Part shown: piece by piece, positions 6,197 to 53,652 of the stretch
How the letters are laid out: each line of letters starts with the position of its first letter
Position numbering within the stretch: position 1 is the stretch's first letter
NCBI GenBank assembly: GCA_965262115.1
Contig: OZ253496.1
Span: 1,856,001-1,920,000 of the forward strand
DNA from: Nitrospinales bacterium
Lineage (GTDB): Bacteria; Nitrospinota; Nitrospinia; Nitrospinales; VA-1
Length of the DNA: 64,000 nucleotides
Direction: 5' to 3'
The notes under the pieces: generated by a model
What the model was told of the DNA's origin: nothing
Databases searched by the model: none
What the model saw: only the letters and a program-made list of their open reading frames with translations
Translations under genes and position numbers: made by a program

Positions 6197-6235
6197 TACC
6201 CGTTCCGGGCACGAAAGCTTAAGTGAAACATCACG
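6197..6235 (-). repeat. ~40-bp micro-element copy
   Basis: Reverse complement is cgtgatgtttcacttaagctttcgtgcccggaacgggta. Removal restores gagat|tcttcactgcgttcagaatgac. Confidence 0.85.
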
Positions 6236-6303
6236 TCTTCACTGCGTTCAGAATGACAAGAAACGCCAGCTTGTCATCCTTGAGAAGCCAAAGGCGACGA
6301 AGA

Positions 6304-6423
6304 CGTGATATTTTTCCTTAACCTTCGTGAGCCTGTGATATTCCCTCCGCTAAATTCATGCCCGGAACGGGTAGAAGGGGTATGTGATGTCCTCTTCCTT
6401 AACCTTCATGCCCCGAAGGGGTA
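6304..6423 (+). repeat. three ~40-bp micro-element copies: outer 6304-6382, nested 6334-6373, tandem 6383-6423
   Basis: Each begins YGTGAT and ends GGGTA. Removing all three restores gcgacgaaga|atcc. Confidence 0.85.
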
Positions 6424-6430
6424 ATCCGGT

Positions 6431-6652
6431 TGATCTTCCCCTGAATTGGTGGACACATCGAAAAGTGTGGATAATACACTTTTGGAGGTGTTTTTATGGG
6501 AACCAAACGCAGGAGTTTCAGTAAAGAATTCAAGTTAGAAGCGGTTCGATTGGTTATTGAAGTAGGCGATAGCATTGCCCGGGTGTCCCGGGATCTGGGA
6601 ATCCGTTCTGCCCTTCTGGGTCGCTGGAAACAGGAGTATGAGGAGGATCAGG
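6431..6652 (+). mobile_element. truncated IS3-family left end with 5' part of orfA
   Basis: 222 bp identical to 38891-39112 (IRL tgatcttcccctgaattggtggaca; MGTKRRSFSKEFKLEAV). Confidence 0.92.
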
Positions 6653-6694
6653 TGTTATGTAAAGGTCTCCTTGTCAGGGGGATTGAGGGGGTAC

Positions 6695-7096
6695 GTGAAC
6701 CAACACTTAAAGAGAGGGAAAGGCCTGACTTTCCTATTACTAGCCTTCATCAGTTGGACGCCCCATGCGTCGGCAGAGCCTGTCGACTCAGAAACCGGGC
6801 GGGACATTTTCTACAAACATTGCAAAGCCTGCCACGGAAATAAAGGCGACGGCAAAACTTTTGCGGCCAATGTGCTGAATCCACCGCCAAAAAATTTCAC
6901 CGATGAAGAATCAAAAAAGGAACTGATGGAAAAACGGATGATTGAATCCGTCACAAAAGGAAGGAAAGACACCGCCATGATGCCGTGGGAATCGAACCTC
7001 ACTCGGGAAGAAATCCGCGCCGTCGTGCATTACATCCGCCAAAAACTGATGAAACTGGAACCACCGATGGACACAGATGACAACAGATCAAGCTAA
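6695..7096 (+). CDS. monoheme class I cytochrome c
   Basis: Signal-like N-terminus ending ASA, CKACH heme motif, distal TAMMPW. Likely GTG start at 6695 rather than 6575. Confidence 0.85.
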   Translation: MNQHLKRGKGLTFLLLAFISWTPHASAEPVDSETGRDIFYKHCKACHGNKGDGKTFAANVLNPPPKNFTDEESKKELMEKRMIESVTKGRKDTAMMPWESNLTREEIRAVVHYIRQKLMKLEPPMDTDDNRSS

Positions 7097-7688
7097 GTTA
7101 AAAAGCTTCGTAGAGAGATGTTGCTGGGCGTATATCACGCACCAACATTACAAAGAGCTTTTTGAAGGGAGGAAAAGCGATTTAAGACTCTTCGAAAAAG
7201 TTTCACACCAATTCTTTGTAGACCTTAACCGCATATTGATTAAATACTTTTACATTCAAATATACAGCCTAACTGACCGTGATAAGTCTTACGGGAAAGA
7301 AAATCTAACTATTAACAACTTATTGAAAACCGTTGATTGGCCCAGTGACATTAAATCCGAACTTGAAAATAAAGTGAATCGATTGATGGACTTTGGAGAA
7401 AAAATCGCAATCGCAAGGAACAAACTCATAGCCCACGTTGACCTGAAGGCACATTTAGATGAAAAAGTCTTAGGAGGCTTCGAGGAAGGAGAAGATGAAG
7501 AATTTTTCCTTATTCTGGAAGAAACCGTAAATGTTATGCATGAGCACTTGATGGGCGGTCCATACTCCATCCGCGTCAGCAATGCATTTGAGCCGGTGGA
7601 GAAGTTTCTGAGAAAACTAAGAACACTTGAAGAATAAAAAGCCTGTCACCACAGTCATAAATCTGTGTTTATTGGTGTCCATCTGTGG
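7061..7688. repeat. imperfect 28-bp inverted repeats (7061-7088 and 7661-7688) bracketing a HEPN-like gene
   Basis: ccaccgatggacacagatgacaacagat versus reverse complement ccacagatggacaccaataaacacagat, 22/28 identical. Confidence 0.7.
7077..7637 (+). CDS. HEPN-like (AbiU2-type) putative RNase
   Basis: 186 aa, predicted helical, RNKLIAH (Rx5H) motif, AT-rich relative to neighbours. Confidence 0.65.
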   Translation: MTTDQAKLKSFVERCCWAYITHQHYKELFEGRKSDLRLFEKVSHQFFVDLNRILIKYFYIQIYSLTDRDKSYGKENLTINNLLKTVDWPSDIKSELENKVNRLMDFGEKIAIARNKLIAHVDLKAHLDEKVLGGFEEGEDEEFFLILEETVNVMHEHLMGGPYSIRVSNAFEPVEKFLRKLRTLEE

Positions 7689-7735
7689 CTAAAAAGGTTT
7701 TCTTGATAAGACACGGTTGCAAATTACAAGCAGGA

Positions 7736-8041
7736 TTAAACCATGTTCTGCGGTAGCGGGCGGATATTTTTCTCCATCGTGGGCCAATCATCTCGCCTGG
7801 CAAGCTTGAGGTCGTAGCGAGACTGCAAATTCATCCAGAATTCGGCAGTCGTTTTAAAGTATTTTCCCAGTCGCAAAGCACTATTGGCCGTGATACCGCG
7901 TCGGGCATGAACAATATCGTTGATACGTGCTACAGGGACATCAATATCCCTCGCAAGTTTGTTTTGGCTGATCCCAAAGGGCAACATAAACTCTTCCAGT
8001 AGAATTTCTCCCGGCGTGACCGGCGCCAGTTTTTTTCTCAT
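7736..8041 (-). CDS. higA: HigA family antitoxin (XRE HTH)
   Basis: PGEILLEEF...SQNKLAR...R.IT...ALRL...FWMNLQ..YD. Confidence 0.92.
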   Translation of the reverse strand: MRKKLAPVTPGEILLEEFMLPFGISQNKLARDIDVPVARINDIVHARRGITANSALRLGKYFKTTAEFWMNLQSRYDLKLARRDDWPTMEKNIRPLPQNMV

Positions 8042-8057
8042 AATCTACTCGCTCTAT

Positions 8058-8336
8058 TTAATGATAATCGACGATTTCCACATCATGGGGATGACCATCT
8101 TTCCACTTAAAACAAACCCTCCATCGTTCGTTGATGCGGATACTGTATTGGCCCTTACGGTTTCCCTTTAAAGCTTCTAATCTGTTGCCCGGTGGTTGCC
8201 GCAAATCATTAATCTCTTTGGCGGCTTCGAGCATTTCCAGTTTTCTCCTGGCAACCCTTTCGATATTTCGAAAAAGTGGAACCAATTCATCTCGAAACAG
8301 GTTTTCCGTGTCTTTGCAGCGGAAACTTTTAATCAT
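8058..8336 (-). CDS. higB: HigB (RelE-fold) toxin
   Basis: MIKSF...PPGNRLEALKG.RKGQYSIRIN.RWR.CF...VEIVDYH; toxin gene precedes antitoxin gene. Confidence 0.92.
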   Translation of the reverse strand: MIKSFRCKDTENLFRDELVPLFRNIERVARRKLEMLEAAKEINDLRQPPGNRLEALKGNRKGQYSIRINERWRVCFKWKDGHPHDVEIVDYH

Positions 8337-8341
8337 TCTTT

Positions 8342-8370
8342 ATAGTATTCCTAAAAAAGAAACGTGTCAA
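8342..8370 (-). promoter_or_regulatory. sigma70 promoter of higBA
   Basis: TTGACA-17 nt-TACTAT on the minus strand, with 5 nt between the -10 box and the higB ATG. Confidence 0.65.
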
Positions 8371-8405
8371 CAGGAATTCGATAACAGAAATATAGGTTTC
8401 TTCTC

Positions 8406-8714
8406 CTACTTCTTCACCTCTTTACCCAGTTTCTGTTCGATGGAAGCGATTTTGGATTCCAGCCTGCCCGATTTGCCCACCCTATAATCGATCTTGATAC
8501 CGCAGGTGATGCGTTTGCAATCCTTCCTCATGGTCTCGTAACATTGTTTGACCACCCCCATAACTTCATCGAACTCGCCTTCCAGCACCGTTCCCATCGG
8601 ATTCAACCGATACGGCACACCGCTATCGTCAATAATTTTAAGGGAACGGCTGACCTGTTCGCTGACGCTCTCCCCTTTATCCATAGGGCTCATGCTGAAC
8701 TCAAGCAGTACCAT
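8406..8714 (-). CDS. MTH1187/YkoF-like thiamine-binding protein
   Basis: FSMSP..KGESVS...SGVPYRLNPMGTVLEG...KIDYR. Start at 8714, 8720 or 8735. Confidence 0.85.
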   Translation of the reverse strand: MVLLEFSMSPMDKGESVSEQVSRSLKIIDDSGVPYRLNPMGTVLEGEFDEVMGVVKQCYETMRKDCKRITCGIKIDYRVGKSGRLESKIASIEQKLGKEVKK

Positions 8715-8732
8715 ATTCATGTCCTCAAAATT

Positions 8733-8836
8733 CACTAGGCGGAGTACCTCCGCTGGTAATTTGCAATTTCTTTATTTCGTGGGCAAACGTTTTCTCGGCC
8801 CAACGAGTCATTGCGAGTTGGCCCCACGCCGAGTGG
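8733..8836. repeat. CCRCTAGGCG-terminated ~100-bp repeat family copy
   Basis: ctaggcggagtacctccgctgg...ttggccccacgccgagtgg. Similar copies near 24168-24272, 35015-35115 and 60385-60605; partial ends at 6015, 17386, 19560, 47769 and 53599. Confidence 0.8.
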
Positions 8837-8932
8837 GAATTTATTACTTGCATTTTAGGGCTGAAATATGAAATGATCAACCATCCCATTCAAGCAATTG
8901 CGGGAAATCCAAGTAAAGGCGGTATTTGTTTT

Positions 8933-17532: not shown

Positions 17533-17572
17533 TGTGATATTTGACCAGTGCCTTCATGCCCCCGTAGAAGTA
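17533..17572 (+). repeat. degenerate ~40-bp micro-element copy
   Basis: tgtgatatttgaccagtgccttcatgcccccgtagaagta. Confidence 0.6.
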
Positions 17573-18740: not shown

Positions 18741-19423
18741 TCACTCTTCGAGGGAGAGCTTTGCATAACCCAAGATTCTTCGTTGCAATAGCTCCTCAGA
18801 ATGACAAAATAGCCTTTTATTGTCATGCTGAGCTTGTCGAAGCATCTCGCTTTTCTGCTTTATAGACTTACGCAAAGGTCTCGCTTCGAGGGTCATGTAC
18901 TTTGGATTGTCGAACATAAGTCCGAAGGCGGGGACTTTTTTGGGCTGGCGGGTCAGGTTGCGGTATATCTCGTGAAATGATTCAGTATCCAACGAATCAT
19001 CCATCAACCCGACCAGTTGCTGCGGGGTGATGGCATTCATCGAATTTTCCGAAAACAGCGAGGTTCCAATTCCGGACCAATGCGAAGAGACAAAACCCTG
19101 ACGCACCAAATGGGTAGTGCCGAGCGAGTTTCTCCGGCTTTGGCAAGGATGTGCCGGGCAATGTAGGCGGGGACGCAACGGCCAATGGCTACTATCCGCG
19201 ATGGATTCTCCGCCGGGTAAACAAAAAGTCCCACCACCGTGTTGCCCATCTCAGCAAATTCTTTGCGGATGTTTTTTAAATCTTTTTCATAGCGTTTCGA
19301 GACCCAGGCTTCCAGTTTTACCGGCTTATGGGAAATGGAAACACAGTTTTTTTCTGCATACAAGATACCCGGAGTAACCGTCAATTCTATTAAAATTAGA
19401 AAAATACTAATTCGGCGAGCCAC
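18741..19423 (-). pseudogene. frameshifted paralog of 19583-20155 with an in-frame MITE at its 3' end
   Basis: ORF 19037-19465 matches the paralog's N-half (VAIGRCVPAYIA) and ORF 18741-19178 its C-half (HW.GIG, FGL). The frame changes near 19130. Confidence 0.75.
18754..18882. mobile_element. 129-bp MITE with GAGAGCTTTGCATAA/TTACGCAAAGGTCTC ends
   Basis: Terminal inverted repeats; flanks tcttcgagg and gcttcgagg (8/9 direct repeat); internal REP-like hairpins. Partial copy at 53458-53531. Confidence 0.8.
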
Positions 19424-19449: not shown

Positions 19450-19555
19450 TACCCCTCCCGGGCATGAAAGCTGAGGAAAGATTATCACAAGCCGAAATTA
19501 CGTTTGCCTGCCGGACATGATATTTATTCCTTAGCCTTCGTGCCCCGAAGGGGTA
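19450..19555. repeat. two ~40-bp micro-element copies (19450-19489 minus, 19516-19555 plus)
   Basis: Removal restores ttaagccgaaattacgtttgcctgccggaaaaagctattgct, which resembles the uninterrupted repeat at about 25388-25430. Confidence 0.85.
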
Positions 19556-25464: not shown

Positions 25465-25809
25465 CTAACCCGGCGGCCAGTTCATGGCGCGACCGCCTAA
25501 AAGATGATAATGAATATGATACACCGACTGCCCGGCCCCGGCACCACAATTGACCACCAACCGAAACCCTGATTTATCGAGGCCCCTTTCCTTCGCCAGT
25601 TGGTTTGCCACACTGATCACCGAACCCATCAACGTATGATCCTTCTCCTCGACATCCAGCAAGGTAGCCTGATGGATTCGAGGGATGATCAGGATATGCG
25701 TAGGAGCTTGCGGGTTAATATCATTGATCGCGAACAAGGCGTCCGATTCATAAACCTTATCTGAAGAGATGGTCCCCTCGCTGATTTTGCAGAACAGGCA
25801 ATCACTCAT
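25465..25809 (-). CDS. histidine triad (HIT) nucleotide-binding protein
   Basis: DCLFCKI, DINPQAPTH, AGQSVYHIHYHLLGG. Confidence 0.93.
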   Translation of the reverse strand: MSDCLFCKISEGTISSDKVYESDALFAINDINPQAPTHILIIPRIHQATLLDVEEKDHTLMGSVISVANQLAKERGLDKSGFRLVVNCGAGAGQSVYHIHYHLLGGRAMNWPPG

Positions 25810-27304
25810 AAGGTTTTTTTCCGCGTCGCTCCGGGTTTCCTATATCCTGTTTATTTTCCTGGTGGGGCAGAGAATCAAACTGCTCAAGATGCTCTATAAT
25901 TTCTTCTTTATAGGAGATAAATGGATCGAGCATCAGAAACGGTTCGTCAGTTTTACTCAGGCGAAATCCGATCCAGTCTATGAGATAACCCATGTGGGAA
26001 TGCTGGTTCATGAGCCTTTTAACAAGCTCTCCCCGGCCATGCGCACGGGTTCCTCTTGGAGGATTGACTTTTGAGAAGTCGACAGCCTCATCGGTAGTTT
26101 TGCGGTAACCATCGCCACTGGCTTCCAATCCCCAGAACAAACCGGTTTCCTTATTCAGGTTATGGTATTCCAGATCCAGGCTTTTGAGCCAGGGGTCATG
26201 CCATTCCAGGTTTTCTTCGTTTCTAAACTCGTTGAGCATCCAATACTTGCTGGCCCAGTCCACTCGGCCGATCACCGCTTCCGGTCCTTTAGGTAAATCG
26301 GCCAAGACCGATTCCCAGCCCTCCAGAATCCAGCCGGTCTCCCGATTTGTCCCGGCCAGATGTTCCTTACAGGTATTTAAAATATCCCATTGCAGCTCCA
26401 GAGCGGTGGAAGATTTTCCCGAAGCCAGCTTCACCTCCCATTTAAAATCCGGATCGCGGGAAATGGAACGCATGGCAAAAACCGAGTCCGCAAGAATCCA
26501 TTCCCGTTTGGCGACGCCCAACTGCATGATTTCCAGCATGAGGGTTGTGGTTCCCATTTTCATGGCGGTGGCAAACTCACTCATCGTCGAGTCACCAACC
26601 AAAAGATGAATGCGCCGGTATTTGCTCGGGTCCGACAATGGCTCGTCGCGGGTATTGACAATCGCCCGGTTATATTGCACCCACCGGTAAAATTCATTGG
26701 GAATATGGTCAGCCCTTTGTGACAGCTGAAAGTTCACCTCATCGCCCTGGTTTTCATAAGGCGTGATGCCATCCCAATCCCGAAACGGGTGGGGATCGCA
26801 GGAACCGATGCGGCCCGCACCGCAATAAATCAGTCGAGTGGTTAAAAAGGAAGAAAGCAGTTTCAGGTTGTCGCGCTCATCGAAAGGGAATCCTCTACTG
26901 ACCAGATAATTCTCGTGGCAGCCGAACGTCGCGCTGGTTTCAAGATCCACATTGTTCTTGATGAACGAAACATGATCGGCCCAGCCCAACTCCTCTACCG
27001 CTTCCTGAATCAGCGTGTCGCCGGCGCGGTCAAAAGTCACCAGGTCAACAAGATTGGAACATTCCGGAGAGGCGTATTCCAAATGCCCCATGTCGAGATA
27101 CAAGCGCCCACCGTTAAGCAGAAACCCGCCGTTACCGGGGGGCTCATCGTTAGCGCGGTAGTGAAGGTCCAGCACACCATGATTTTTTGAGAAAACATGG
27201 TTCTTGACCTTGTTGGCCACTTCCATGGAATCGAGAGGGAACTCTGTATCATTTTTGATCAGCAGGCCGTATTCCGTTTCGATACCGTAGATGCGCTTTT
27301 TCAT
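25802..27304 (-). CDS. pafA: Pup/UBact-protein ligase PafA
   Basis: GIETEYG, NGGRLYLD.GH.EYA, KNNVD...GCHENY, NTRDEP, LDLEYH. Confidence 0.88.
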   Translation of the reverse strand: MKKRIYGIETEYGLLIKNDTEFPLDSMEVANKVKNHVFSKNHGVLDLHYRANDEPPGNGGFLLNGGRLYLDMGHLEYASPECSNLVDLVTFDRAGDTLIQEAVEELGWADHVSFIKNNVDLETSATFGCHENYLVSRGFPFDERDNLKLLSSFLTTRLIYCGAGRIGSCDPHPFRDWDGITPYENQGDEVNFQLSQRADHIPNEFYRWVQYNRAIVNTRDEPLSDPSKYRRIHLLVGDSTMSEFATAMKMGTTTLMLEIMQLGVAKREWILADSVFAMRSISRDPDFKWEVKLASGKSSTALELQWDILNTCKEHLAGTNRETGWILEGWESVLADLPKGPEAVIGRVDWASKYWMLNEFRNEENLEWHDPWLKSLDLEYHNLNKETGLFWGLEASGDGYRKTTDEAVDFSKVNPPRGTRAHGRGELVKRLMNQHSHMGYLIDWIGFRLSKTDEPFLMLDPFISYKEEIIEHLEQFDSLPHQENKQDIGNPERRGKKPYE

Positions 27305-27323
27305 TTCAGGGTGCCTTTTATAT

Positions 27324-28124
27324 TTAACCTCTCTTAAGAGAGGATTTACATAGTTTCGCCAGATCCTTATCGTTCAAAAACTGGTACCCCGCCTCGGTGA
27401 CCAATGCCACGGTAGGAAAAATTTCATCTTCCGGACGGGCTTTGCCGGTTGCAGAATCAAACTGTGCCGCAGTCTGCAAAAGCCGGATGGCCAAGGTGAC
27501 CGCATCGCTTTCCGACCTTTCTACCAGAGGCTTTTCTCCCCAGAGGTCTTCATGTTCCAGAATTCCCCGAATGGTCGGCGAACCAGAGCCGGTCGCGGTA
27601 TGGGTGCTGATCCTGAAATCGGCTCCCAACATATCGTAAAAATGTATCGCCGCCTTTTTAGATTTCAAATCATAAGTGGCAAATATAGGACTCACCGCGC
27701 CCAACCCCTGCACCGCCATCCCGACATTCTCTTTCAGCAGTTTTGATAAGGCGCGGATTTTCCCTTCCACACTCATGGTCTGCATCTGCGACCGCCGGTA
27801 GTATTCAAAATTATGCGTGAGAACCCGTGCCATCTCGAAAGCCGTAGCAGGAACCCCGGCAATCGCCATGAGCGTATAATCGTCGATGGGAATGACCTTG
27901 TCGCAACGTTCATACATGATACTGTTGCCCGCCGTGGCCCGTCGGTCCCCGGCAACAATCACGCCATTCCTAAAGTGGAAGGCGAGAACCGTGGTGCCCT
28001 GCGTTACTGCAATGCCGCTTGGCGCCTGCGAAGAATCAATGCGGGTATGCCAGCGATAGCCGGATTTTTCCAGTAGCTCGAAAAAATCTCCGGGCGAAGT
28101 ATGAGGATCTGTTTGAAAACTCAT
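27324..28124 (-). CDS. prcB: 20S proteasome beta subunit
   Basis: Propeptide then G|TTVLA, AGDRRAT, GSGS, DSATG. Confidence 0.9.
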   Translation of the reverse strand: MSFQTDPHTSPGDFFELLEKSGYRWHTRIDSSQAPSGIAVTQGTTVLAFHFRNGVIVAGDRRATAGNSIMYERCDKVIPIDDYTLMAIAGVPATAFEMARVLTHNFEYYRRSQMQTMSVEGKIRALSKLLKENVGMAVQGLGAVSPIFATYDLKSKKAAIHFYDMLGADFRISTHTATGSGSPTIRGILEHEDLWGEKPLVERSESDAVTLAIRLLQTAAQFDSATGKARPEDEIFPTVALVTEAGYQFLNDKDLAKLCKSSLKRG

Positions 28125-28297
28125 TGACCGGTTCTCTGTTTGTATTTTTCAGATTGTTTCGGGTCCACCTTTTTCATCCGCTTCAAAAGATTATCCTTTC
28201 CCGGCCGTGAAGGTTCCGGGCTGGAAGGGCCGGAATCATCGCGATCTGGACTGGTTTCTTTTTTTTCTTCCCTTCTCAGGGGATCATTCATTTCCAT
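28121..28297 (-). CDS. ubact: ubiquitin-like protein UBact (Pup analogue), 58 aa
   Basis: Not in the ORF track. AGGAG RBS, then MEMNDPLRREEKKETSPDRDDSGPSSPEPSRPGKDNLLKRMKKVDPKQSEKYKQRTGQ with C-terminal RTGQ. Stop overlaps the prcB start (ATGA). Confidence 0.92.
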   Translation of the reverse strand: MEMNDPLRREEKKETSPDRDDSGPSSPEPSRPGKDNLLKRMKKVDPKQSEKYKQRTGQ

Positions 28298-28347
28298 GGG
28301 ATCAACTCCTTTTGTTGCCAGGCCGTTTCTGCCTCTTCACCCGAGCA

Positions 28348-29082
28348 TTAACCGACCGATGATTTTAACTTACCAATATCTTCTTTCGTAAGCGCTCTGT
28401 AAATGGCTCTTCGCTCCACCTTTCCCGATAACACGGCGGCCTCAAGATACCATTGATCAAAAGCCTCTTTCAAAGTCTTGGGCATATTTTCATCGTCTTC
28501 TTCCTGCTTTCTACTTTCATCCCAAAGGTGGCAGGTTTCCTTTAAAGCTTTATTCAGCGGAAACGTCGCAAAGGGGGTATCCTGAATTTTTTTCTGCACC
28601 TCCTCCATGACTTTTTCATTACCGGCGATAACGGTTCCATTTTTAAATGTTTCCCAATGTCCATCATAGTTCACACGAAAAAAGTGAGGATGGCCATCAC
28701 CGTCCAGTTCAGCAAGAAGAAGGCGAATGATATAAGGAGCCCGTTGGATTTCCTCAAAATTCTGTTTGAGTGCGGGAGCGATGCCAAACTGCAGCAACCT
28801 TGCCAATGTCACATCTTGAGCCGAACGGTTGAATCCTTCCAGATGCGCCATATCCAAAAGCGTCATGCGCAGCCGTTCCACATCAGCAGGGTGACCCACG
28901 CCGCCCAGGGCGATGCGGTCATAGACTTCGAATATTTTTCCCGGCTGGGGAGCAAACCCCATAATCAGCACCCCTTCATTGAAAGGAACCGACAATACCG
29001 GCTGACCCATTTTCAGCTTTTCCTGAACATAACTGTGGCGGGTGGAAACCGCTTCCATCCAGCGATACGGCTCTTCAAACAT
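28348..29082 (-). CDS. prcA: 20S proteasome alpha subunit
   Basis: KIFEVYDRIA..GVG...D...LR, ++DVT, APY...LLLAE; operon context. Confidence 0.85.
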   Translation of the reverse strand: MFEEPYRWMEAVSTRHSYVQEKLKMGQPVLSVPFNEGVLIMGFAPQPGKIFEVYDRIALGGVGHPADVERLRMTLLDMAHLEGFNRSAQDVTLARLLQFGIAPALKQNFEEIQRAPYIIRLLLAELDGDGHPHFFRVNYDGHWETFKNGTVIAGNEKVMEEVQKKIQDTPFATFPLNKALKETCHLWDESRKQEEDDENMPKTLKEAFDQWYLEAAVLSGKVERRAIYRALTKEDIGKLKSSVG

Positions 29083-29166
29083 TTTTAACTGTCCCCTCTA
29101 GTCCCATAGCGAGTTTTCCCTTAAAATGAGGATACTTAAAAACCCCTTCACTCTTCCTCTGTTGTG

Positions 29167-30627
29167 CTAAACCAGTTGTTTGCTGGAGTTGAGAATCTCT
29201 TCAACCTCTTCGGAGCCAATGACTCCGGTCAAATCGAGAATCTCTCCGTTCATAAACTCAACTCCGGTCCAATGAATGCTTTTTATTTTCTCCGCTCCTT
29301 GAGCCACCGCCTGCCCTCTTATCTGGGCACGGGTTCCTGTTGGAGGCGACTCAACAGCCCGGGCGATTTCTTCTTCACTGAGCAGGGAATAAACATCCCC
29401 CTCCTGCTGCAATCCCAGATACAATCCGCGATCAGGGTCCAGATTATGGTATTCCAAATCCAGGCTCTTGAGCAAGGGGTCCTCCCAGCCAATGCCCTCG
29501 GACTGCATGAACCCGGTAAATAGTTTTTCCTTGATCGCCCAGTCGATGCGATCCGAAAGTTTTTCCGGACTGTGCCGAAGTTCATCCAGTGTCTTTTTCC
29601 ATTCCGCAAGAATCCAGTCCCACTCGCGATCCTTTCCGGCAAAGGCTTTTTCTACCGCCTCTAAATACGCTTCCTGAATCTCAAGAGCCGTGATAGTACC
29701 ACTAGTCTTGCGACGTAAAACTGCAGTTTTGTCGAGAGACACTCTTAACACATCGGCCACTGGGTCCGCCAATTCCAAATGGAGAAGTTTCTCCTCACGG
29801 GCGATCAGATTGAGAACCAGCGATGTACTCCCCACCTTCAGGGCCGTGGCATAAGCGGACATATTGGCATCGCCGAGAATTAAATGCAAACGCCGATACC
29901 GACTGCTCACCGCATGCGGTTCGTCCCGGGTATTGATGAGGGGACGCTTCGTCATGGTCTCGATGCTTAAAACTGTCTCGATAAAGTCGGACCGCTGGGC
30001 CAACTGCAACCCCTGAAAATCACTAGCGTTTTCTGATCCCACTTTTCCTGCCCCGGCATACAACTGGCGCGTCACCAGAAAAGGAGCCAGCCCTTTTACC
30101 ACATCTTCGAAGGGAGTTTCTCTGGGGATGAGATAGTTATCATGAGTTCCATAACTATGGCCGCTGTAATCGGTATTATTTTTGAACACCTGAAGCGGTT
30201 TGCCCTCCAGCTCGCGGTTGCGAATGGCCACGCATTCGGCGACAATCCGCTCGCCCGCCACATCGTGCGCAACCAGAGATAACACCGACCGGCATTCCGG
30301 GGTGCTGTATTCTGGATGAGTATGATCATTATAAAACCGGGCACCATTTGTCAAAACCCGGTCGCACTTCATATCTAAATAAGAATAAGGCCTTTTACGA
30401 TCTTCGGCGCAAAAGGCATCTTCTTCTTCATCCTGAGCCAAAGACCCCACCCGAAACCCACGCATATCCAGATGCGAGTTCTCCTGCGAGTAGGCCCATT
30501 TGCCAAACACGCTTTTGCGTTCGCAGGCCTTTAAAAGTTTCATGGACTCTTCAACCGGGTCGGAATTTTCCATATCTTCCCGGACTATCCCATACTCGGT
30601 CTCCATACCCAGGAGAGAAACACTCAT
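29167..30627 (-). CDS. dop: depupylase/deamidase Dop
   Basis: GMETEYG, LTNGARFY.DH.HPEYSTPEC, SYGTHDNY, TRDEPHA, RLHLILGDAN. Confidence 0.88.
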   Translation of the reverse strand: MSVSLLGMETEYGIVREDMENSDPVEESMKLLKACERKSVFGKWAYSQENSHLDMRGFRVGSLAQDEEEDAFCAEDRKRPYSYLDMKCDRVLTNGARFYNDHTHPEYSTPECRSVLSLVAHDVAGERIVAECVAIRNRELEGKPLQVFKNNTDYSGHSYGTHDNYLIPRETPFEDVVKGLAPFLVTRQLYAGAGKVGSENASDFQGLQLAQRSDFIETVLSIETMTKRPLINTRDEPHAVSSRYRRLHLILGDANMSAYATALKVGSTSLVLNLIAREEKLLHLELADPVADVLRVSLDKTAVLRRKTSGTITALEIQEAYLEAVEKAFAGKDREWDWILAEWKKTLDELRHSPEKLSDRIDWAIKEKLFTGFMQSEGIGWEDPLLKSLDLEYHNLDPDRGLYLGLQQEGDVYSLLSEEEIARAVESPPTGTRAQIRGQAVAQGAEKIKSIHWTGVEFMNGEILDLTGVIGSEEVEEILNSSKQLV

Positions 30628-32240
30628 ATGATAGACCTGCGAATCGTGTTTTCGGTGGCCCTATCCGATTCTCTGGGCTTTCTCACCCGCACAACATTTT
30701 TTGATTCCATATCCAAAAGCTGAAGCCAGTCTTCCATATTGGATTCCGCAGGAAGCAGGTTGCCTTCCTCAAATTCAGCCTCCAGTGAAACAATAAGATC
30801 GTCCACTGTCATACACAGCGTTTCACCCTGAATCGCCCGTTCAATGGATCTCTCTTTAGCGCGTTTCATGATTCCCTCAATAACCGCACCGGAAATGAAA
30901 TCGTTCCAGTACAGTTTTTTGGTGCCGCCGCTTCTTAAAGTCAACACCAGCACTTCCTGTTCCGAACTGCGGTCAAACAGGCGATCCAGAAATGGTTCGG
31001 CCATGGCGTCAAAATCTTCATGTTCACGGGGCAATCCGTCTTTCAGGTAAACACGCAGGATAGCTTTAGACTCTTCACGGTTGGGGCGCGACACTTTGAT
31101 CTTTCTGTCAATTCTGCCGGGCCGGATGACAGCCGGGTCGATCAGGTCGGGCCGGTTGGTCGCCAGAATCACTACCGTTTCGCGAAGGGATTGGATGCCA
31201 TCCATCTCCGCGCAAAACATGGGGACCACCGTGTTGCTGATGTTCGATCCGCGCCACGCCTGCCGGGTTCCCAGAATGGATTCCGCTTCATCTATAAATA
31301 TGAAAGGAATCTGACCTTTTTCTTTATAGTCCCGGGCTTTCTTAAAAATTTCACGGATTTTACGTTCCGATTCCCCCAGCCACATATTGAGGATCTCCGG
31401 TCCTTTGACATGAATAAACCGGCCCTGCAGTTCGGAATTTTCCTGCTCGGAAAGTTTGCGGATCACTTCGGTGAGAATCGCTTTTCCTATGAGAGTTTTT
31501 CCGCAACCCGGAGGACCATAAAACAAAAACCCTTTGGGCACCTGATATTCCATCTGGCTCAGAATTTCTTTGTGCAGGAGCGGATATTCGAGGACTTTGC
31601 GCACCTCTTCTTTTACTTTTTCCTGTCCGCCCACCTGTGACCATTCCACATGTTCATAATCATCTTCGACCAGAGTGCGGGACTCGCGTTTAGAAAGTTT
31701 TCCTAAAATAACCCTTTGGTTACTGTCGAGAAAAATTTCTTCCCCCTCTTTCAGCCCGGTTTCATCCAGACCCTCTCGGACCAAAACAATCGTCTCGGTA
31801 TTGCCGGTCGCCGCCTGCACCAGCCATTGCCCACCGGCAAGCTTTCCGGAAATTTTTGCTAGTGCCCCCTGAGTGGGAAAAGGTAGTAGGGCAATCACCA
31901 CAAATCCTTCATTGAGCGCGACCTGATCACCGGTTTTCAATCCCTCATTTTCCGTAAGTTCCGGGACGACCGCAGCCTGGTATTCCGTGCCTCCGGAAAC
32001 CAGACGCACCAGACCGTCCTCCCCCTGACCAAGAATCGTGCCGATGCGATGGGCGGGAGACTTTAACTTTTCAATGGCTTCCTCCAAGGTCTTGATTTTC
32101 AACGCATACTGCTGGGCAGACTGCTGGGCCTGAAACATGGCATCCCTGAGATCAAGAATTTTTTCCTGCAATTGGGGTCGATCCTGGGTTTCATTTAAAA
32201 CCTGGTCGATCAACTCTACAATATGGGTCGGGTCTCCCAT
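30624..32240 (-). CDS. arc: proteasome-associated AAA+ ATPase ARC/Mpa
   Basis: N-terminal coiled coil; GPPGCGKT, KGPEILN.W.GESE, FIDE, NRPDLIDPA..RPGR.D.KI. Confidence 0.9.
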   Translation of the reverse strand: MGDPTHIVELIDQVLNETQDRPQLQEKILDLRDAMFQAQQSAQQYALKIKTLEEAIEKLKSPAHRIGTILGQGEDGLVRLVSGGTEYQAAVVPELTENEGLKTGDQVALNEGFVVIALLPFPTQGALAKISGKLAGGQWLVQAATGNTETIVLVREGLDETGLKEGEEIFLDSNQRVILGKLSKRESRTLVEDDYEHVEWSQVGGQEKVKEEVRKVLEYPLLHKEILSQMEYQVPKGFLFYGPPGCGKTLIGKAILTEVIRKLSEQENSELQGRFIHVKGPEILNMWLGESERKIREIFKKARDYKEKGQIPFIFIDEAESILGTRQAWRGSNISNTVVPMFCAEMDGIQSLRETVVILATNRPDLIDPAVIRPGRIDRKIKVSRPNREESKAILRVYLKDGLPREHEDFDAMAEPFLDRLFDRSSEQEVLVLTLRSGGTKKLYWNDFISGAVIEGIMKRAKERSIERAIQGETLCMTVDDLIVSLEAEFEEGNLLPAESNMEDWLQLLDMESKNVVRVRKPRESDRATENTIRRSII

Positions 32241-38890: not shown

Positions 38891-38955
38891 TGATCTTCCC
38901 CTGAATTGGTGGACACATCGAAAAGTGTGGATAATACACTTTTGGAGGTGTTTTT

Positions 38956-39230
38956 ATGGGAACCAAACGCAGGAGTTTCAGTAAAGAATTCAAGTTAGAA
39001 GCGGTTCGATTGGTTATTGAAGTAGGCGATAGCATTGCCCGGGTGTCCCGGGATCTGGGAATCCGTTCTGCCCTTCTGGGTCGCTGGAAACAGGAGTATG
39101 AGGAGGATCAGGGGAATGCGTTTCCCGGCAAAGGACAGCTTAAGCCGGGAGATGAGTTGCAGCAGTTGCGGCGAGAAAACGCTCGCCTTCGTATGGAGCG
39201 GGACATATTAAAAAAGGCGGCAGTTATCTT
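38956..39230 (+). pseudogene. IS3 orfA, interrupted 5 codons before its natural end
   Basis: HTH and LKKA motifs. Joining 39230 to 40481 gives VIFSKGSQ* with an ATGA overlap to orfB. Confidence 0.88.
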
Positions 39231-39286
39231 TGTGATGGCCTCTTCATTAATCTTTATGCCCGGCACGGGTACTTCATGCCCCGAAG
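39231..39286 (+). repeat. micro-element copy (39231-39271) plus the 3' half of a second copy split by IS110 (remainder at 40476-40480)
   Basis: tgtgatggcc...gcccggcacgggta followed by cttcatgccccgaag[IS110]gggta. Confidence 0.85.
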
Positions 39287-39301
39287 CAACTGTGTTAAAT
39301 G

Positions 39302-40460
<1,159 letters not shown>

Positions 40461-40495
40461 TGAACAACATACAAGGGGTACTCGAAGGGTTCCCA

Positions 40496-41359
40496 ATGAG
40501 ATATCGGTTTATACGGGATCATCGAGAAGCATTTCCGGTAAGCCCGATGTGCCGGGTTCTGGAAGTGGGACGAAGTGGGTTCTATGCCTGGCTGAGCCGC
40601 CCCGAGAGCCTGAGGAGCCGTGAGAAGCAGCGATGGGTTGATGAGATCAAAACCGTTTATAAGAAGAGTCGCCAGACTTATGGCAGTCCCAGAATTCATG
40701 AGGACTTGAAAGACAAGGGATATGCCATTGGCAGGCATCGTATTGCCTGTCTTATGCGCGAGCATGGAATCGTTGCCAAGCACAAAAGAAAGTTCAGGGT
40801 GACAACCGATTCCAAACATAATCACCCGGTGGCAAAAAACAAACTGCAACGGCGGTTTAATGTTGCTGAGCCCGGTCAATGCTGGGTTTCGGATATCACC
40901 TATATCCCGACTCAAGAGGGCTGGTTATACCTTGTGGTGACGCTGGATTTATTCCACCGTAAAGTTATTGGTTGGGCCATGGATCGTTGGATAACCCGTT
41001 GGTTGGTAATGAGAGCTTTAAATATGGCAATGAAGAACGGCGGCATGAAACCGGGATTGATTCACCATTCTGACCGGGGGGTTCAATATGCCTGCAACGA
41101 TTTTCAAGCCTTGCTCAATGTTCATGGGATAGAGTGCAGTATGAGCCGGAAGGGCGATTGCTGGGATAACGCCGTGGCGGAGAGTTTTTTCCATACTCTC
41201 AAAGTGGAACTCATTCATAACCGGAACTACAAAACCCGTCAGCAAGCAAAGAAGGATATTTTTGAATATATCGAAGTGTTTTATAATCGGCAACGCCGTC
41301 ACTAATATCTCGGCTATCTCAGCCCTGCCGAATTCGAGAAACAGGCCTATGCCTCTTAA
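40496..41359 (+). pseudogene. IS3 orfB DDE transposase with premature stop
   Basis: [30 protein letters not shown] at 41303-41305 interrupts RRH*YLGYLSPAEFE. Confidence 0.9.
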
Positions 41360-41416
41360 CTAACTGTCCACTAAAACAGGGGAAGTTCAGAGTTTAGGTT
41401 TCGGCGGTCGCGTGCG

Positions 41417-41456
41417 TGTGATATTCCCAACATTAACTTCATGCCCTGAAAGGGTA
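41417..41456 (+). repeat. ~40-bp micro-element copy
   Basis: tgtgatattcccaacattaacttcatgccctgaaagggta. Confidence 0.8.
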
Positions 41457-43312: not shown

Positions 43313-43392
43313 TTTTTAAGCGCTGTCTTGATTCATTCAAAACTTTTCTTAAAGGCAATTCGCTGTCCCTTATTGAAACCCTTGGGTAACCC

Positions 43393-43511
43393 GTCATTGC
43401 GAGGAGGCATTGACGACGTAGCCATGATATCCCTTCATTAGCTCTCGTGCCCCGCAGGGGTAAATCCATAAAAGCTGGATCGCCACGCTCCCTACGGTCA
43501 CTCGCGATGAC
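43393..43511. repeat. GTCATTGCGAG...CTCGCGATGAC palindromic element containing a micro-element (43423-43462)
   Basis: Inverted ends. Removing catgatatcc...gccccgcaggggta restores gacgtagc|aatcc. Confidence 0.82.
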
Positions 43512-47794: not shown

Positions 47795-47873
47795 CGTGGT
47801 ATTCTTCCTCAGCTTTTCCCTTGCAGGGCATAAAGGCAAGTGAAGAGGGCATCACATGTGCCTTGGAGGGGTA
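47795..47873. repeat. micro-element (plus) with an inverted copy nested at 47816-47856
   Basis: Outer halves join to cgtggtattcttcctcagctttgtgccttggaggggta; inner reverse complement is tgtgatgccctcttcacttgcctttatgccctgcaagggaa. Confidence 0.8.
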
Positions 47874-49372: not shown

Positions 49373-49501
49373 GATTAAAAGCCTCCAAACAGTTTAAGGT
49401 TTAATTTTTTCTTAAAAGAAAAAGATAATCCATTTCAAAACTATTTGGAACGACAGGAACCAGACAGTTGAACGACATTCAAAAGTCCGAGAAAAGAAGA
49501 T

Positions 49502-49963
49502 TTAATAAAAATAATTCCAAGAAACTTCTATGTTTTTGCTATTCAATTGCGTCTCAGGAAAAGAAGTCCCAGATTGATTATTACAAATGGGAAATGACCC
49601 ATGGTTTTCTAGAAAATCCGTGAGGAAAAAACTTTCCAACTCAAAAATATTATCCGTCCCCAAGTTTCTTAATAGCTGAAATATGTGTATGGTAAATAAA
49701 GTGGTATATTTGGAGGCATAATTGGAGATAGCTTTATTACCAGACTGACCAGTTAAATGACCTCTGAGCCTACTTCCGATACTATTTTGTTTTGATTCGC
49801 TCATTCCAATATAAATCAACCTAGAAGCCTTAAACGGATAAGGAATTTGGCAATCTTCAAGGTAAATAAAATACAGACCAATGGCACCCTGAACAAACCG
49901 AACTGACTGCTCATTAAGTCTGAATTTTTCTAAAAAGCTTATTGATAACGGATTATTTAACAT
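49502..49963 (-). CDS. GIY-YIG-like nuclease
   Basis: GLY...IYIGMS...RL..H...LE..F.......P.CN. Confidence 0.65.
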   Translation of the reverse strand: MLNNPLSISFLEKFRLNEQSVRFVQGAIGLYFIYLEDCQIPYPFKASRLIYIGMSESKQNSIGSRLRGHLTGQSGNKAISNYASKYTTLFTIHIFQLLRNLGTDNIFELESFFLTDFLENHGSFPICNNQSGTSFPETQLNSKNIEVSWNYFY

Positions 49964-49982
49964 TTTCTAGAAAGATAAAAGT

Positions 49983-50174
49983 ATGGACCAAAATGATATC
50001 AAAACAGGGCAGGAAGTTGTAGATGAGTTTGTAAAATCAATTGGCCAAGAGAAGAAAGTTGATAAAGAAACCTTGGAATCCATTAAGGACCTGCACTTAA
50101 ATAATAAGCTTACAAAGACCAATCTTTTGGAAATATTGAGAAAGAAACGTGAGGAGAAACAATGCTTAGATTAA
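49983..50174 (+). CDS. small hypothetical protein (63 aa) overlapping the ATPase start
   Basis: Charged, helical-looking ORF; contains the GAGGAG RBS of the next gene. Confidence 0.55.
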   Translation: MDQNDIKTGQEVVDEFVKSIGQEKKVDKETLESIKDLHLNNKLTKTNLLEILRKKREEKQCLD

Positions 50175-52564
50175 AAAGTATTGAAATATCTGGTTTTAGA
50201 GGGGCCAGATTCCCACTTTTTCTTGATTTCAAAAAGGAATGCAGAAGCATGGCAATATTTGGGGAAAATGCAAGTGGGAAAAGCACCATAACAGATGCAA
50301 TTGAATGGTTTCTCTCAGATAAAGTAGGTCACCTTTGGCGAGAAGATTGCAAAAAGGAGGCTCTAAGAAATCTAAAAATTGACGAAAAGCAAGAGTCCTA
50401 TGTAAAAACTGAATTAAATAAACAGGGATTTGAAGGAACAAGAAAACTAAGTCCAAAGCTAAAGTCACAGATTCAAAATAAATCGCCGGACCTAGACAAC
50501 TATCTCGACAAAACAACCTCAGAAAGACTTATTTTGAGGAATGCCGATTTAACGACGGATATCAACAAAACTAAAAGCCAAAAAAAGGACAAAATTGCAG
50601 ACATAATCGGATATGAAAAAATTATTCAATTCAGAAACACTATTCAATCAACCCTCAATACTCTTCAAAAAGAAACATCATACACAACTGCTAAGCAAAT
50701 TTATGATTCTAAAGTAGCTGAACTATTTAAGTTAGCCGGGAAAGTAGTTCAAACAGAGAAGGACTTTTACAAAGAGATAAATTCAAAACTAAGCTCTTTC
50801 AATCTTAATAAAAAAGCAAATGATAAGGCTTCCTATAAAGCCTGTATTTTGGAATTAAATAAAGGCATAAATCAGGAAGAGAAGGCCAAGAAAAAAATAA
50901 AATTACAAAGTTTTAAGGAAGAACTAAAGAGCATTGAACTAATACTCCCTTCGCCAAAAAAGTATGAAAAGGATTTTTTATTGGCATACGAAAGTTTGAT
51001 TAAAGAAAAAGAAAAGATAAAGCAGCTTAATCTTGAAGGTTTCCTTAAAATGGGCAAGGAAATTTTGGAAGGGAATGAAAATCAAGAAGAAGAGTGCCCT
51101 TTCTGTGGGAACGAGATTAAGTTCGAAGAACTACAGGTCGAAATAACTAAAAAATTATTGGCCCTGAAAAAAAATCGAGAAGAATTTGAAAAAATAAAAA
51201 CTCAAAAGGACTCTTACGTTAGCTCCTTGAATGAAGTGGGCAACGCGTGTTTCGCCCTAAAATTCAAGTGGGAAGGTTTGAATATTTCAGACGAATTTAA
51301 AGAATTGGTACTTGAATTTTGCACTGAGACTTCCACTCTATCCAAGATAGTTGTAGATAACTTTAATTTGTACGGCGAAATAAAGATACCGGAATTAAGA
51401 GAAAAACAAGAAGAAGTCTTATTAAAAGAATTTGGGTTGCTGGTAAAGAAAGTTGAAATTAATGAAAAGGCATTAAAGCTTACGGAGCAACAGCAAAAAA
51501 TTGTTGATGCAAATGGAGAGCTAGCAAGTTTTCGAAAAGCATTTTTTGACTATCAAGATAATTTGGAAATAAAGCAGATGTTTGAAGAACAAATTAGCTC
51601 TCTATCTTTTGTGTTTGAAGAATTTAAGAAGGTGCAGAATAAAGCTATGCAAGAAGCATTAAATAGGATGTCGGAGGATATTGGGAAGTTCTATTCAATA
51701 CTTCACCCGGAAGAAAATGTTGACTCTGTGAGGCTAGCCATTGTTGGAGAAGAGGGTGTTGAGTTTGAATATTCTTTTGAAGGAAAAACAAGACATCCTC
51801 CGATGAAATATTTAAGCGAGTCTCATCTAAATAGTTTGGGAATAGCATTATTTCTATCCTCAGTTAAACTTTTTAACGTGGGAAGCAATTACTTTATCTT
51901 AGATGATGTCGTTACAAGTTTAGACATAGGGCACAGGCGTAGGATAATAAGATTGCTAAGAGATGAATTCCGGGATTGGCAGGTAATTTTATTAACCCAT
52001 GAGTACTATTGGTTTGAGCTAATTAAAAAAGAACTTGGTCCAGAAGGTTGGATCTTTAACGAAGTAAGGTGGGACAATGAGAATGGAATATTGTTAGACC
52101 TGAGTCCGCAGAACCTTCGGGATCTGATTGAAAAAAAAAGAAAGTCCGGAGAATCGGTAGGGAACGATCTAAGAAAATTATTAGAAAGATTGTTGAAGGA
52201 AGTTTGCGAATCTTTAGAAGTTAAAGTGGCGTATCGTTCAAACGAGCGAAACGAAGAAAGAATGTCTGCTGAATTGCTAAATGCCTTGCGTGGAACCATA
52301 AATAAAAAATGCGTGCCCCTAAAACAACACCAAATATATTCTAAACTAGAGGCAGACAACTTAATTGGAACAAAAGAATCTCATGATAGGCCGGAAGCCG
52401 CAAGCTTGGGAGACGTATATGTTATTTTAGAGGATATTGACGAATTCCAGCAATTATTTGAGTGTGGGGCATGTAAAACATTTGTATCGACAGAAAGAGA
52501 TGTGTCAGGTCAAGATAAGATACTCTGTAAGTGCGGAAAAAAAGAATTAAGCTGGAAAATATAA
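50162..52564 (+). CDS. Rad50/SMC-like ABC ATPase with zinc hook and extra C-terminal domain
   Basis: Walker A GENASGKST, coiled coils with central CPFC, signature LSESH, Walker B FILDD, LTHE, C-terminal CGAC...CKCG. Confidence 0.82.
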   Translation: MLRLKSIEISGFRGARFPLFLDFKKECRSMAIFGENASGKSTITDAIEWFLSDKVGHLWREDCKKEALRNLKIDEKQESYVKTELNKQGFEGTRKLSPKLKSQIQNKSPDLDNYLDKTTSERLILRNADLTTDINKTKSQKKDKIADIIGYEKIIQFRNTIQSTLNTLQKETSYTTAKQIYDSKVAELFKLAGKVVQTEKDFYKEINSKLSSFNLNKKANDKASYKACILELNKGINQEEKAKKKIKLQSFKEELKSIELILPSPKKYEKDFLLAYESLIKEKEKIKQLNLEGFLKMGKEILEGNENQEEECPFCGNEIKFEELQVEITKKLLALKKNREEFEKIKTQKDSYVSSLNEVGNACFALKFKWEGLNISDEFKELVLEFCTETSTLSKIVVDNFNLYGEIKIPELREKQEEVLLKEFGLLVKKVEINEKALKLTEQQQKIVDANGELASFRKAFFDYQDNLEIKQMFEEQISSLSFVFEEFKKVQNKAMQEALNRMSEDIGKFYSILHPEENVDSVRLAIVGEEGVEFEYSFEGKTRHPPMKYLSESHLNSLGIALFLSSVKLFNVGSNYFILDDVVTSLDIGHRRRIIRLLRDEFRDWQVILLTHEYYWFELIKKELGPEGWIFNEVRWDNENGILLDLSPQNLRDLIEKKRKSGESVGNDLRKLLERLLKEVCESLEVKVAYRSNERNEERMSAELLNALRGTINKKCVPLKQHQIYSKLEADNLIGTKESHDRPEAASLGDVYVILEDIDEFQQLFECGACKTFVSTERDVSGQDKILCKCGKKELSWKI

Positions 52565-52627
52565 AATTATTTCATTTAAACAGCCTAGAAAGGTACCAAG
52601 TTAAGGAAAGGGAAGCTTTGGGTGAGT

Positions 52628-53334
52628 ATGGCTTATAAAATAGGCGGTAAAGAATTCTCAAATAAATCTGAAATTACTAGTCAATGCCAGAAAATTCGTG
52701 ATGGCACCCTAGATCGGCAAGTTGTTGATGATTTATATCCAGAGTTTTTATTCGACCTTTGCAAATATCACAATGAATGGCACATGAAAGCAGAAGGTGG
52801 TGTTAGTTATATTTCTACCCAGACCACCGAGCACGGAACTCGTTGCTTTGTTTTAATAAAAAAAATGGAAGTGAAATTGATATTGGCTTCCCTTATGCGA
52901 TTAAATGTATTCTTACAAGCCGTACTTCAAAATTAACTCCTCAGAGTTTACTTGATTTTAAGAGTGCTGCAAGAACTTCAATTCAATCTCAAATATTTAT
53001 CTTTCGCGATAGGGCTCTAAATTCCGCAAAAACTTGTCCCTCTACTGGCGAAATAATAAATAGAGAAAGCTACTCCATTGACCATGTACCGCCAAATACC
53101 TTTGACAGACTTCTTTTTAACTTTAGCCGAGAAAATAGTATAAATCCTTTGAATGTTGAGGTTAATTCAAGGGAAGGTGTTGTCGCTGAGTTCGGAAATA
53201 AAAAATTGGAGTCTATGTGGCAAAAATACCATAAAGCGAAAGCAAAATTGAGAATTCTTTCTAAGAAGGGTAATTTACAGTTACCAAAAGTTCATACGCC
53301 TTGGATTGAATTGTGCTCAACCGATACGATCTGA
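52628..53334 (+). pseudogene. DUF3223/DCL-like plus HNH-like protein, split at an A8 run
   Basis: RCF.L.KK|NGSEIDIGF..C spans the two ORFs; later CP.TG....IDH.PP..F...N. A run at 52858-52865. Confidence 0.65.
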
Positions 53335-53609
53335 AAATTAAGTAAGAGCACCCAAAATGGTACCAAAGTGCGGTATTACTGGTACGCTAGGCTTGAGTTG
53401 TTTTAGCTCCGTTCTGCCCCAAAAATCGAAGCAAAGGCTCCCTGCTCACTAGTCGCTGAGAGCTTTGCATAACCCTGGATTCTTCGTCACTTTGTTCCTC
53501 AGAATGACAAAAAGTCCCCGCATGTCATGCTTCCCCTCCTACGTGGTTGAAATAAAAGCTCCATCCCTCTAATATAGCCAGAGAGAAACTTCTGGAGTCA
53601 CTCGCCGTG

Positions 53610-53652
53610 TACCCCTCTGCGGGGCATGAAAGCTAATGAAGGGGATAACACA
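53610..53652 (-). repeat. ~40-bp micro-element copy
   Basis: Reverse complement is tgtgttatccccttcattagctttcatgccccgcagaggggta. Removal gives cactcgccgtg|agggcaaatagcaatagc. Confidence 0.82.

Follow-up and report, generated by a model that had tools for sequence, protein, structure and literature searches.

A mobile element of about 40 nucleotides in marine Nitrospinaceae, with an exact 3' junction, an often altered 5' flank and ends that likely meet in a folded strand

How is a non-autonomous DNA unit of about 40 nucleotides inserted over and over in a bacterial chromosome? The question is raised by a 64,000-nt stretch (the window, at its whole length: positions 1,856,001 to 1,920,000 of contig OZ253496.1) from a Nitrospinales bacterium, a marine nitrite-oxidising member of the Nitrospinaceae whose 2.68 Mb genome (G000) is one contig. 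A first-pass annotation, made from the sequence of the window alone, had listed 14 copies of a micro-element, and all 14 were found at their positions, two being degenerate and one comprising merely the 3' part of a copy. The movement of bacterial repeats of 20–40 bases has been a standing question since the cyanobacterial small dispersed repeats (SDRs) were described. The present family offers several handles on it: a predicted intermediate with joined ends in one stem, a scar that is exact at 3' and patched at 5', many pairs of filled and empty sites in two genomes that are 94% identical, and a series of movers found not to match.

In G000, 190 matches were obtained with a loose pattern and 240 by iterative excision, a procedure that returned 6 each from the reversed and the complemented genome; 213 of the 240 are 39–41 nt long. 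An nhmmer profile, which the first-pass annotation had proposed for the genome and its relatives, gave 381 matches of at least 15 bits and none in the reversed genome, that is, about 380 copies. With a strict pattern the element was present in 20 of 22 genomes of the genus and 24 of 36 of the family, and in none of 24 genomes from other families. The sister genome G013, the other member of the 94% pair (one contig, 98% complete), holds 325 strict copies, and the 3' module was found in 31 of 92 genomes of the phylum. Both the reality of the unit and its recent mobility are close to certain. An intron-like role was rejected, since the open reading frames (ORFs) of at least 120 aa in the excised genome cover 76% of it and hold only 36 of 225 copies, and these ORFs are mostly short chance ones or belong to the insertion sequence (IS) IS3.

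Three phage-collection contigs, among 13 loci, likewise hold whole copies. At L324, L325–L330, L335 and L331, such copies lie in a Mu-like phage contig and in a 50-kb contig that has a GTGGT variant in six copies; transfer of the element from host to host by phages is possible. As for known families, the comparison with Rfam gave none at gathering score in the window, and one sub-threshold sX15 match lies over the left end of an IS110. The searched literature, including term look-ups in bioRxiv 10.64898/2026.10.21.760802 and PMC3733652, held no description of the element family, subscription papers and bioRxiv supplements being outside that search.

The consensus reads Y GTGAT, a variable pyrimidine-rich interior, YTCR and TGCCC-N-GNA-N'-GGGTA. 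Of 349 distinct copies, 332 have the GNA loop, and 311 close the loop by a Watson–Crick pair (C-G 222, G-C 69, T-A 18; permutation maximum 202). GNA triloops are DNA-type mini-hairpins. In addition, of 373 distinct copies, 320 have a first base that makes a Watson–Crick pair with the nucleotide immediately before the stem (T-A 190, C-G 114, A-T 16), against a permutation mean of 173 and maximum of 203; within G000 alone this holds for 119 of 133. As a control, the chromosomal +1 base after GGGTA was complementary to the base before the stem in merely 53 of 371. Given the covariation of first base and pre-stem base, the stem would be extended by the element's own 5' end, leaving both ends side by side, and copies rotated so that their ends are joined fold into one extended stem. 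Ends placed in this way likely belong to a single-stranded circle or nicked dumbbell, as the covariation among related copies suggests. After copies with a G-C closer, the next three bases are all pyrimidines in 48 of 72 contexts, vs 19 of 195 for C-G closers, possibly a lineage effect.

The junctions were defined with empty alleles. Empty paralogous repeats equal the left plus the right flank of a copy exactly, with no target duplication. The same was found for the IS3-family element of the window, which carries a copy at its orfA/orfB junction: a related IS3 in G016 reads ATCTT|CTCGAAAGG, an empty site with nothing gained or lost, and the IS3 of two further, more distant relatives is also empty. 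Insertion without target duplication, as first claimed, was thus borne out. The proposal to see whether intact IS3 copies contain the segment had a divided outcome, the three relatives' IS3 being empty and all 15 of the 15 G000 junctions filled, with a depth ratio of 15 in sequencing run X2. Near-identical G000 copies of this IS3 have spread though each holds the 41-nt copy after a slippery A run. In the filled IS3 a −1 shift leads into a stop, and orfB can now be reached only through a +1 shift, for which the element contains CCC CGA. A trans helper, filling after the spread or a new frameshift may each account for the spread of such copies.

Host palindromes serve as insertion sites, as do some four fixed positions within other copies and the position immediately following the GGGTA of another copy. 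The target bias is weak: in 201 contexts, G was found at −5 in 70%, a purine at −3 in 78% and W at +2 in 83%; A stands at −2 in just 2 of 256 contexts, and the commonest −5..−2 words (GAGC, GAAG and GTAG) account for 64 of 256. Tandem insertion after GGGTA agrees with a target rule akin to the terminus of the element itself. Hence there is indeed no fixed target tetranucleotide, and the claim that copies share no flanking motif stands for a fixed word and fails for the weak preferences at −5, −3, −2 and +2. No copy-specific guide was detected in the variable interior by a position-by-position scan or by duplex and run tests on 136 unique pairs (|z| < 2), and 325 folded empty sites gave no sharp pairing signal at the junction of the kind expected from a structured-target rule. 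Related copies have targets more alike at −6..−1 (2.79 vs 1.96 matches) and at +1..+6 (2.29 vs 1.67) and not beyond, a similarity confined to −5..+3 in which the pairs are non-independent and one host-repeat family dominates. REP-like (repetitive extragenic palindromic) units of about 100–130 bp are themselves present or absent between G000 and G013 with the micro-element carried along (window 43360–43510 and 18750–18885, and genome-wide); no REP-associated tyrosine transposase (RAYT) is present alongside them, and genes for small GIY-YIG and DUF559 proteins are interspersed with them.

The precision first claimed for insertion applies to the 3' junction, which is exact, and not to the 5' flank, which is often altered relative to the empty site. 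In copies whose hairpin loop is split by another copy, 19 of 24 distinct cases read TG-AG-C, vs TG-CC-C in free copies, among which AG was found in 0 of 237. The inner copies involved belong to several types, and the outer ones are unlike one another in their interior, flanks and closing pair (a window example is given in Table 1). Sites of G000 were compared with 2.4 Mb of G013, a further 0.46 Mb of the latter being outside the comparison. Among 233 anchored sites, the host repeat was absent or diverged in 182, 32 were filled in both genomes, 3 showed other indels and 16 were clean empties, of which 10 had the exact length, 2 had a boundary called two bases early and 4 were off by 1–2 nt. Mismatches in the 12 counted empties peak at −4 (7) and −3 (6). 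An alignment test on 13 distinct orthologous pairs (72 rows, from which 59 gapped ones, mostly one filled site in two overlapping loci, were dropped) gave mismatches at 22/78 positions at −6..−1, 2/78 at +1..+6 and 23/364 elsewhere (Fisher 8e-6). After removal of one duplicate event and one possible deletion remnant, a hand count gave 14/66 vs 2/66, with 7 of 11 events changed.

An unrelated type of host repeat shows the same change from CC to AG at −4,−3, its GGCCCCA having become GGCAGCA, and at further sites the bases at −5..−2 have converged to GTAG. Concerted double changes of this kind point to a templated patch. Complementarity tests between interior and flank did not support the incoming interior as its template (|z| < 2). 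Carry-over of the donor flank would be the simplest source of the patch, and a systematic comparison did not demonstrate such carry-over.

The reading that we put first, giving it somewhat short of an even chance, is that a folded single strand is moved in trans by a strand-transfer enzyme that leaves the 3' junction exact and the 5' junction patched; the chemistry of that enzyme is likely tyrosine/HUH-like. The mobile form would be a folded single DNA strand, either a circle or a nicked dumbbell. The enzyme would nick the top strand of the target and link base +1 to the GGGTA end; starting from the target's free 3' end, a short templated patch would complete the 5' junction, and its template would most simply be the 5' flank of the donor site. 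Such copying of the donor flank would explain why related copies lie in targets that are similar at −5..+3. Empty sites, covariation and one-sided flank changes agree with the first-pass description of a non-autonomous element, mobilised in trans as a single-strand hairpin and inserted without target duplication. If the patch is donor-templated, the element would be both an insertion agent and a site-directed mutagen, and its enzyme would insert short DNA scarlessly at guide-chosen sites.

Several observations count against this reading. No enzyme was found, searches with PF01797, a RAYT model and an HUH-motif scan all being negative. By ViennaRNA, the circular fold of so short a strand is not energetically favoured (mean −0.24 vs −3.42 kcal/mol for the linear form), no circle was observed, and the contigs of four sequencing runs, which drop rare variants, contained no joint skipping a copy. 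Near-identical copies at unrelated sites often differ at −5..−1, local target similarity extends to both sides of the junction (among non-independent pairs), and five empty alleles differ by 1–2 nt in length. To our knowledge, HUH transposases leave the flank unedited.

The search for the mover was extensive. Y1 TnpA (PF01797) was absent from G000, from G013 with its 325 copies and from G007; Y1 genes occur in 11 of 36 relatives, one of them a zero-copy genome, and no element lies near the Y1 loci. The RAYT model gave 0 of 5 genomes, these three included, and a Y2 transposase likewise 0 of 5, with the control genomes equally silent. The known kind of HUH enzyme (IS200/IS605- or RAYT-like) proposed in the first-pass annotation is thus not supported. 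An HUH-motif scan of 7975 ORFs gave no credible match, and inspection by eye of 182 basic proteins common with G013 revealed no mover. The mover was not found among the families searched, and it may be among the G000 proteins, most of the total, that lay outside the family-library scan. Longer elements with the same two ends enclosing a transposase, recombinase or reverse transcriptase gene, which had also been suggested, did not appear: of 820 3' ends in the genomes and loci scanned, 48 were orphans, the one that was traced being rpsT beside a broken repeat, and 76 metagenome loci with orphan 3' ends have no shared upstream mobile gene.

Next in standing, and unlikely in our judgement, is homing-like copying: a structure-specific nickase (small GIY-YIG or DUF559) that also spreads host palindromes would nick the target, whose free end would copy a filled donor over the shared flank and so co-convert one side. 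This would suit the one-sidedness of the flank changes, the association of copy lineages with targets and the filling of IS3 in 15 of 15 copies. Candidate genes exist as well: small GIY-YIG genes flanked by host palindromes were found in 13 of 22 genus genomes (among them G013, G019, G007, G018 and G022), and DUF559 has nine matches in G000. However, DUF559 is absent from G007, and the GIY-YIG query was not found in G074, G076, G031 and G004, which have 21–46 copies, and was found in zero-copy G056 and G050; as movers the two were rejected, as they track the element just partly. Moreover, the flanks of the copy in the IS3 junction share little homology with other sites, and homing-like copying alone fails to explain the fixed ends or the end-to-end base pair.

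Two further explanations, each clearly improbable, concern the recombinase and the origin of the flank changes. In the one, a tyrosine recombinase (XerC/XerD or integron-like) swaps a single strand between a folded circle and the chromosome, and replication resolves the product. Integron attC sites and Xer-using phages are precedents for single-strand exchange, the junction lies inside the predicted stem, and XerC- and XerD-like genes are present in G000. On the other hand, the arms of attC or dif sites are much longer than this stem of about 8 bp, no core is shared at the junction and no flank patch would be expected. Four PF00589 matches were obtained in G000, two Xer-like, one without the terminal tyrosine motif and one a fragment. 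The only integron-like protein, of 261 aa with SAM_4 and Phage_integrase domains (L138:1165–1950, G000:C1:2164612–2165397), ends before the catalytic tyrosine motif, is matched over the same length in relatives (24 of 42 genomes) and is flanked by another repeat family. It was rejected as the mover on account of the missing motif and of a distribution at odds with that of the element: it was not found in G013 and G007 and is present in zero-copy genomes.

In the other, to which we give the same low weight, insertion does not write the flank changes: the element would strongly prefer targets that already have a rare AG or GTAG variant, and recombination among repeats would later spread these variants. 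The commonest target words GAGC, GAAG and GTAG would suit such selection, and chimeric sites show that recombination among copies does occur. Against it, AG was found in 0 of 237 free hairpins and the changes are double transversions; outer copies retain their own interior base beside the patch, and the identical change at the identical offset is found in an unrelated host repeat. Target-primed reverse transcription of an RNA intermediate would also give an exact 3' and a patchy 5' end, an asymmetry typical of target-primed events, and is very unlikely: the RVT_1 gene is broken in G000 (L001, G000:C1:50216–51029) and was not found in G007, G019 and G018, and a triloop with C-G, G-C and T-A closers is a DNA-type hairpin. 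Least probable by far is movement by the 24-copy IS110 recombinase, which is the largest multi-copy transposase family of G000 and physically tied to the element, and which was largely refuted, since no 2-nt core is shared at the element junctions, its donor guides fit IS110's own ends, its core lies in the loop and not at the element ends, and there is one full left-end match in G013 with 325 copies and none in G022, G015, G004 and G010.

The relationship between IS110 and the element is predicted to be a different one. The first-pass annotation had seen a half copy merely split by IS110; instead, 26 of 26 IS110 left ends follow GCCCCG(A/C)AG, inside a recognisable element copy in 24 of 26 by script and 25 of 26 by eye, and 25 of 26 right ends continue with a G run, 22 of them exactly GGGTA. 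The window IS110 has the features of its family, with a DEDD + Tnp20 recombinase, a CT core in the IS orientation and a predicted left-end RNA with target and donor guides. This left end folds well (z −3.93). In an internal loop, target guides at 40352–40360 (TTTACCCCT) and 40328–40334 (CCCGAAG) match both strands of the hairpin target, so that the target loop spells the hairpin, and in a second loop the donor guides at 40286–40293 and 40259–40264 match IS110's own ends. The target loop is kept in the IS110 relatives of G019 and G016. On these matches, IS110 is predicted to be a passenger whose bridge RNA targets the element hairpin as a safe landing pad.

IS621 likewise has a CT core (PMC11208160), and the use of REPs or stem-loops as IS110 targets was already known (PMC11208160; bioRxiv 10.64898/2026.03.19.712850). 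As far as the available parts of these two sources go, IS621 and ISPpu10 share with the present IS110 the DEDD + Tnp20 recombinase, the CT core, a four-guide left-end RNA and a repeated hairpin as target; here, unlike there, the target is itself a mobile micro-element, a kind of target that was not found in the portions of the literature searched. A bridge RNA retargeted to the element would exemplify, in nature, the programming of a guide against a target that itself moves, within a three-layer stack of parasites: IS110 in the micro-element in IS3 or a host palindrome. The window IS110 ORF is shortened to 264 aa by the lack, at 39528, of 10 bases that are present in contigs of three runs, and 316-aa copies exist elsewhere. 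Several G000 IS110 copies (e.g. C1:1296046–1297247) have left and right flanks from different host sites, which points to rearrangements through these elements.

The copies and associated features of the window are collected in Table 1. The 5' half of the copy at 39272 has been replaced by the copy at 39231. For 53610–53652, the position of the 5' end is proposed from its class, in which the boundary was called two bases early. Beside the element cluster at the start of the table lies a truncated IS3 left end (6431–6650), and genes for Pup/UBact-type tagging and a proteasome ATPase, of known kind, occupy 25802–32240.

Table 1. Element copies and associated features in the window (positions counted from its first letter).
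Feature	Position	Strand	Remarks
39-nt element	6197–6235	−	In GTCATTCTGAAC-type host palindrome, site GAAGA|ATCTC
Outer 39-nt element	6304–6382	+	Hairpin loop split by copy 6334–6373
AG replacing usual CC at −4,−3 of nested insertion	6330–6331	+	Flank-rewriting signature
Nested 40-nt element	6334–6373	+	
41-nt element	6383–6423	+	Tandem: directly after GGGTA end of outer copy
Degenerate element, 3' end GAAGTA	17533–17572	+	Stretch absent from G013 and G019
40-nt element	19450–19489	−	
40-nt element, CATGAT start	19516–19555	+	
IS3-family element with micro-element at orfA/orfB junction	38891–41389	+	
41-nt element at IS3 junction	39231–39271	+	
3' part of second copy, to IS110 core	39272–39286	+	AG at 39285–39286; final GGGTA at 40476–40480
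IS110 (IS621-like, CT core) in hairpin loop	39287–40475	−	Recombinase ORF 39448–40242, shortened here
IS110 left end and predicted bridge RNA	40243–40476	−	
40-nt element, T-GAA-A hairpin	41417–41456	+	
40-nt element in GTCATTGCGAG-type host palindrome	43423–43462	+	Host repeat and element both absent from G013
Degenerate outer element with inverted copy inside	47795–47873	+	38 nt after removal of inverted insert
Inverted nested copy, end GGGAA (degenerate)	47816–47856	−	
TGTTAT-class element	53610–53652	−	Actual 5' end probably 2 nt further in

Unrelated metagenome contigs also contain units with this 3' module. They measure 28–33 nt, with boundaries read from single loci without an empty allele, and have a different 5' part with a second small hairpin. 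L425 holds two of them, one lying cleanly inside a GTAG-type REP, L455 has a copy in another REP, and in L401, an archaeal-looking contig, a 33-nt unit stands in frame within an ORF; further units were found in L414, L420 and L456. These units raise the possibility, to be taken as tentative and on balance doubtful, of a cross-phylum class of 28–41-nt elements that share a 3' hairpin terminus and an undescribed chemistry, in which the 3' end of a folded single strand is joined exactly and a few donor-derived bases choose and overwrite the target. Its enzyme would be a new programmable short-DNA integrase or editor, possibly a housekeeping protein in a second role.

Several known types were rejected by their defining features. 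The asymmetric ends, without terminal inverted repeats or target duplication, do not fit a miniature inverted-repeat transposable element. IS91/ISCR elements require a fixed 3' tetranucleotide, and +1..+4 is variable here. A non-autonomous IS110 derivative would share a 2-nt core between ends and target, which is lacking, and the donor guides match IS110's own ends instead of the element junction. The RYYYAAC...GTTRRRY boxes of an attC cassette are absent from the consensus, and there is no catalytic IntI among the four PF00589 matches. Palindrome-associated transposable elements (PATEs) are non-autonomous IS200/IS605 derivatives; membership was rejected, given no Y1 TnpA in G000, G013 and G007, a loose target bias and no guide (all |z| < 2).

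The resemblance to two single-strand systems goes further, judged from the available parts of the sources. Like REPs and REPINs (REP doublets forming hairpins) with their RAYT, the element is non-autonomous, intergenic, moved in trans and forms a single-strand hairpin; unlike them, it has no GTAG foot (YTCR precedes the stem) and no CT cleavage site, and it invades REP-like palindromes instead of being one (PMC3116915, PMC8266576). It occurs as singlets, direct tandems and nests, unlike the inverted doublets of REPINs, and no RAYT is present in the high-copy genomes. With IS200/IS605, which excise as a circle with joined ends, it shares the absence of target duplication and a strand-specific hairpin; unlike in IS200/IS605, there is one hairpin, at the very end, and there is no fixed target tetranucleotide, guide complementarity or TnpA (PMC8266576).

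The closest known kind are the small dispersed repeats SDR1–8 of Nostocaceae, reportedly described by Elhai et al. in 2008; SDR-type repeats are under 30 nt in size. By their description in the parts of PMC4390886 and PMC13756078 available to us, on which the whole comparison is based, they work alike. Insertion without target duplication is common to both; here the length is mostly exact and the 5' flank often substituted. SDR5 measures 21 nt vs 39–41 nt here, the SDRs belong to another phylum, and the present element has no fixed target word, unlike the SDRs. End-to-end covariation, flank rewriting and IS110 targeting are not among the SDR features described in those parts (PMC4390886, PMC13756078). 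Added here to the first-pass description are the covariation of the first base with the base before the stem, the changes in the 5' flank, an IS110 predicted to aim at the hairpin and the existence of 28–33-nt relatives.

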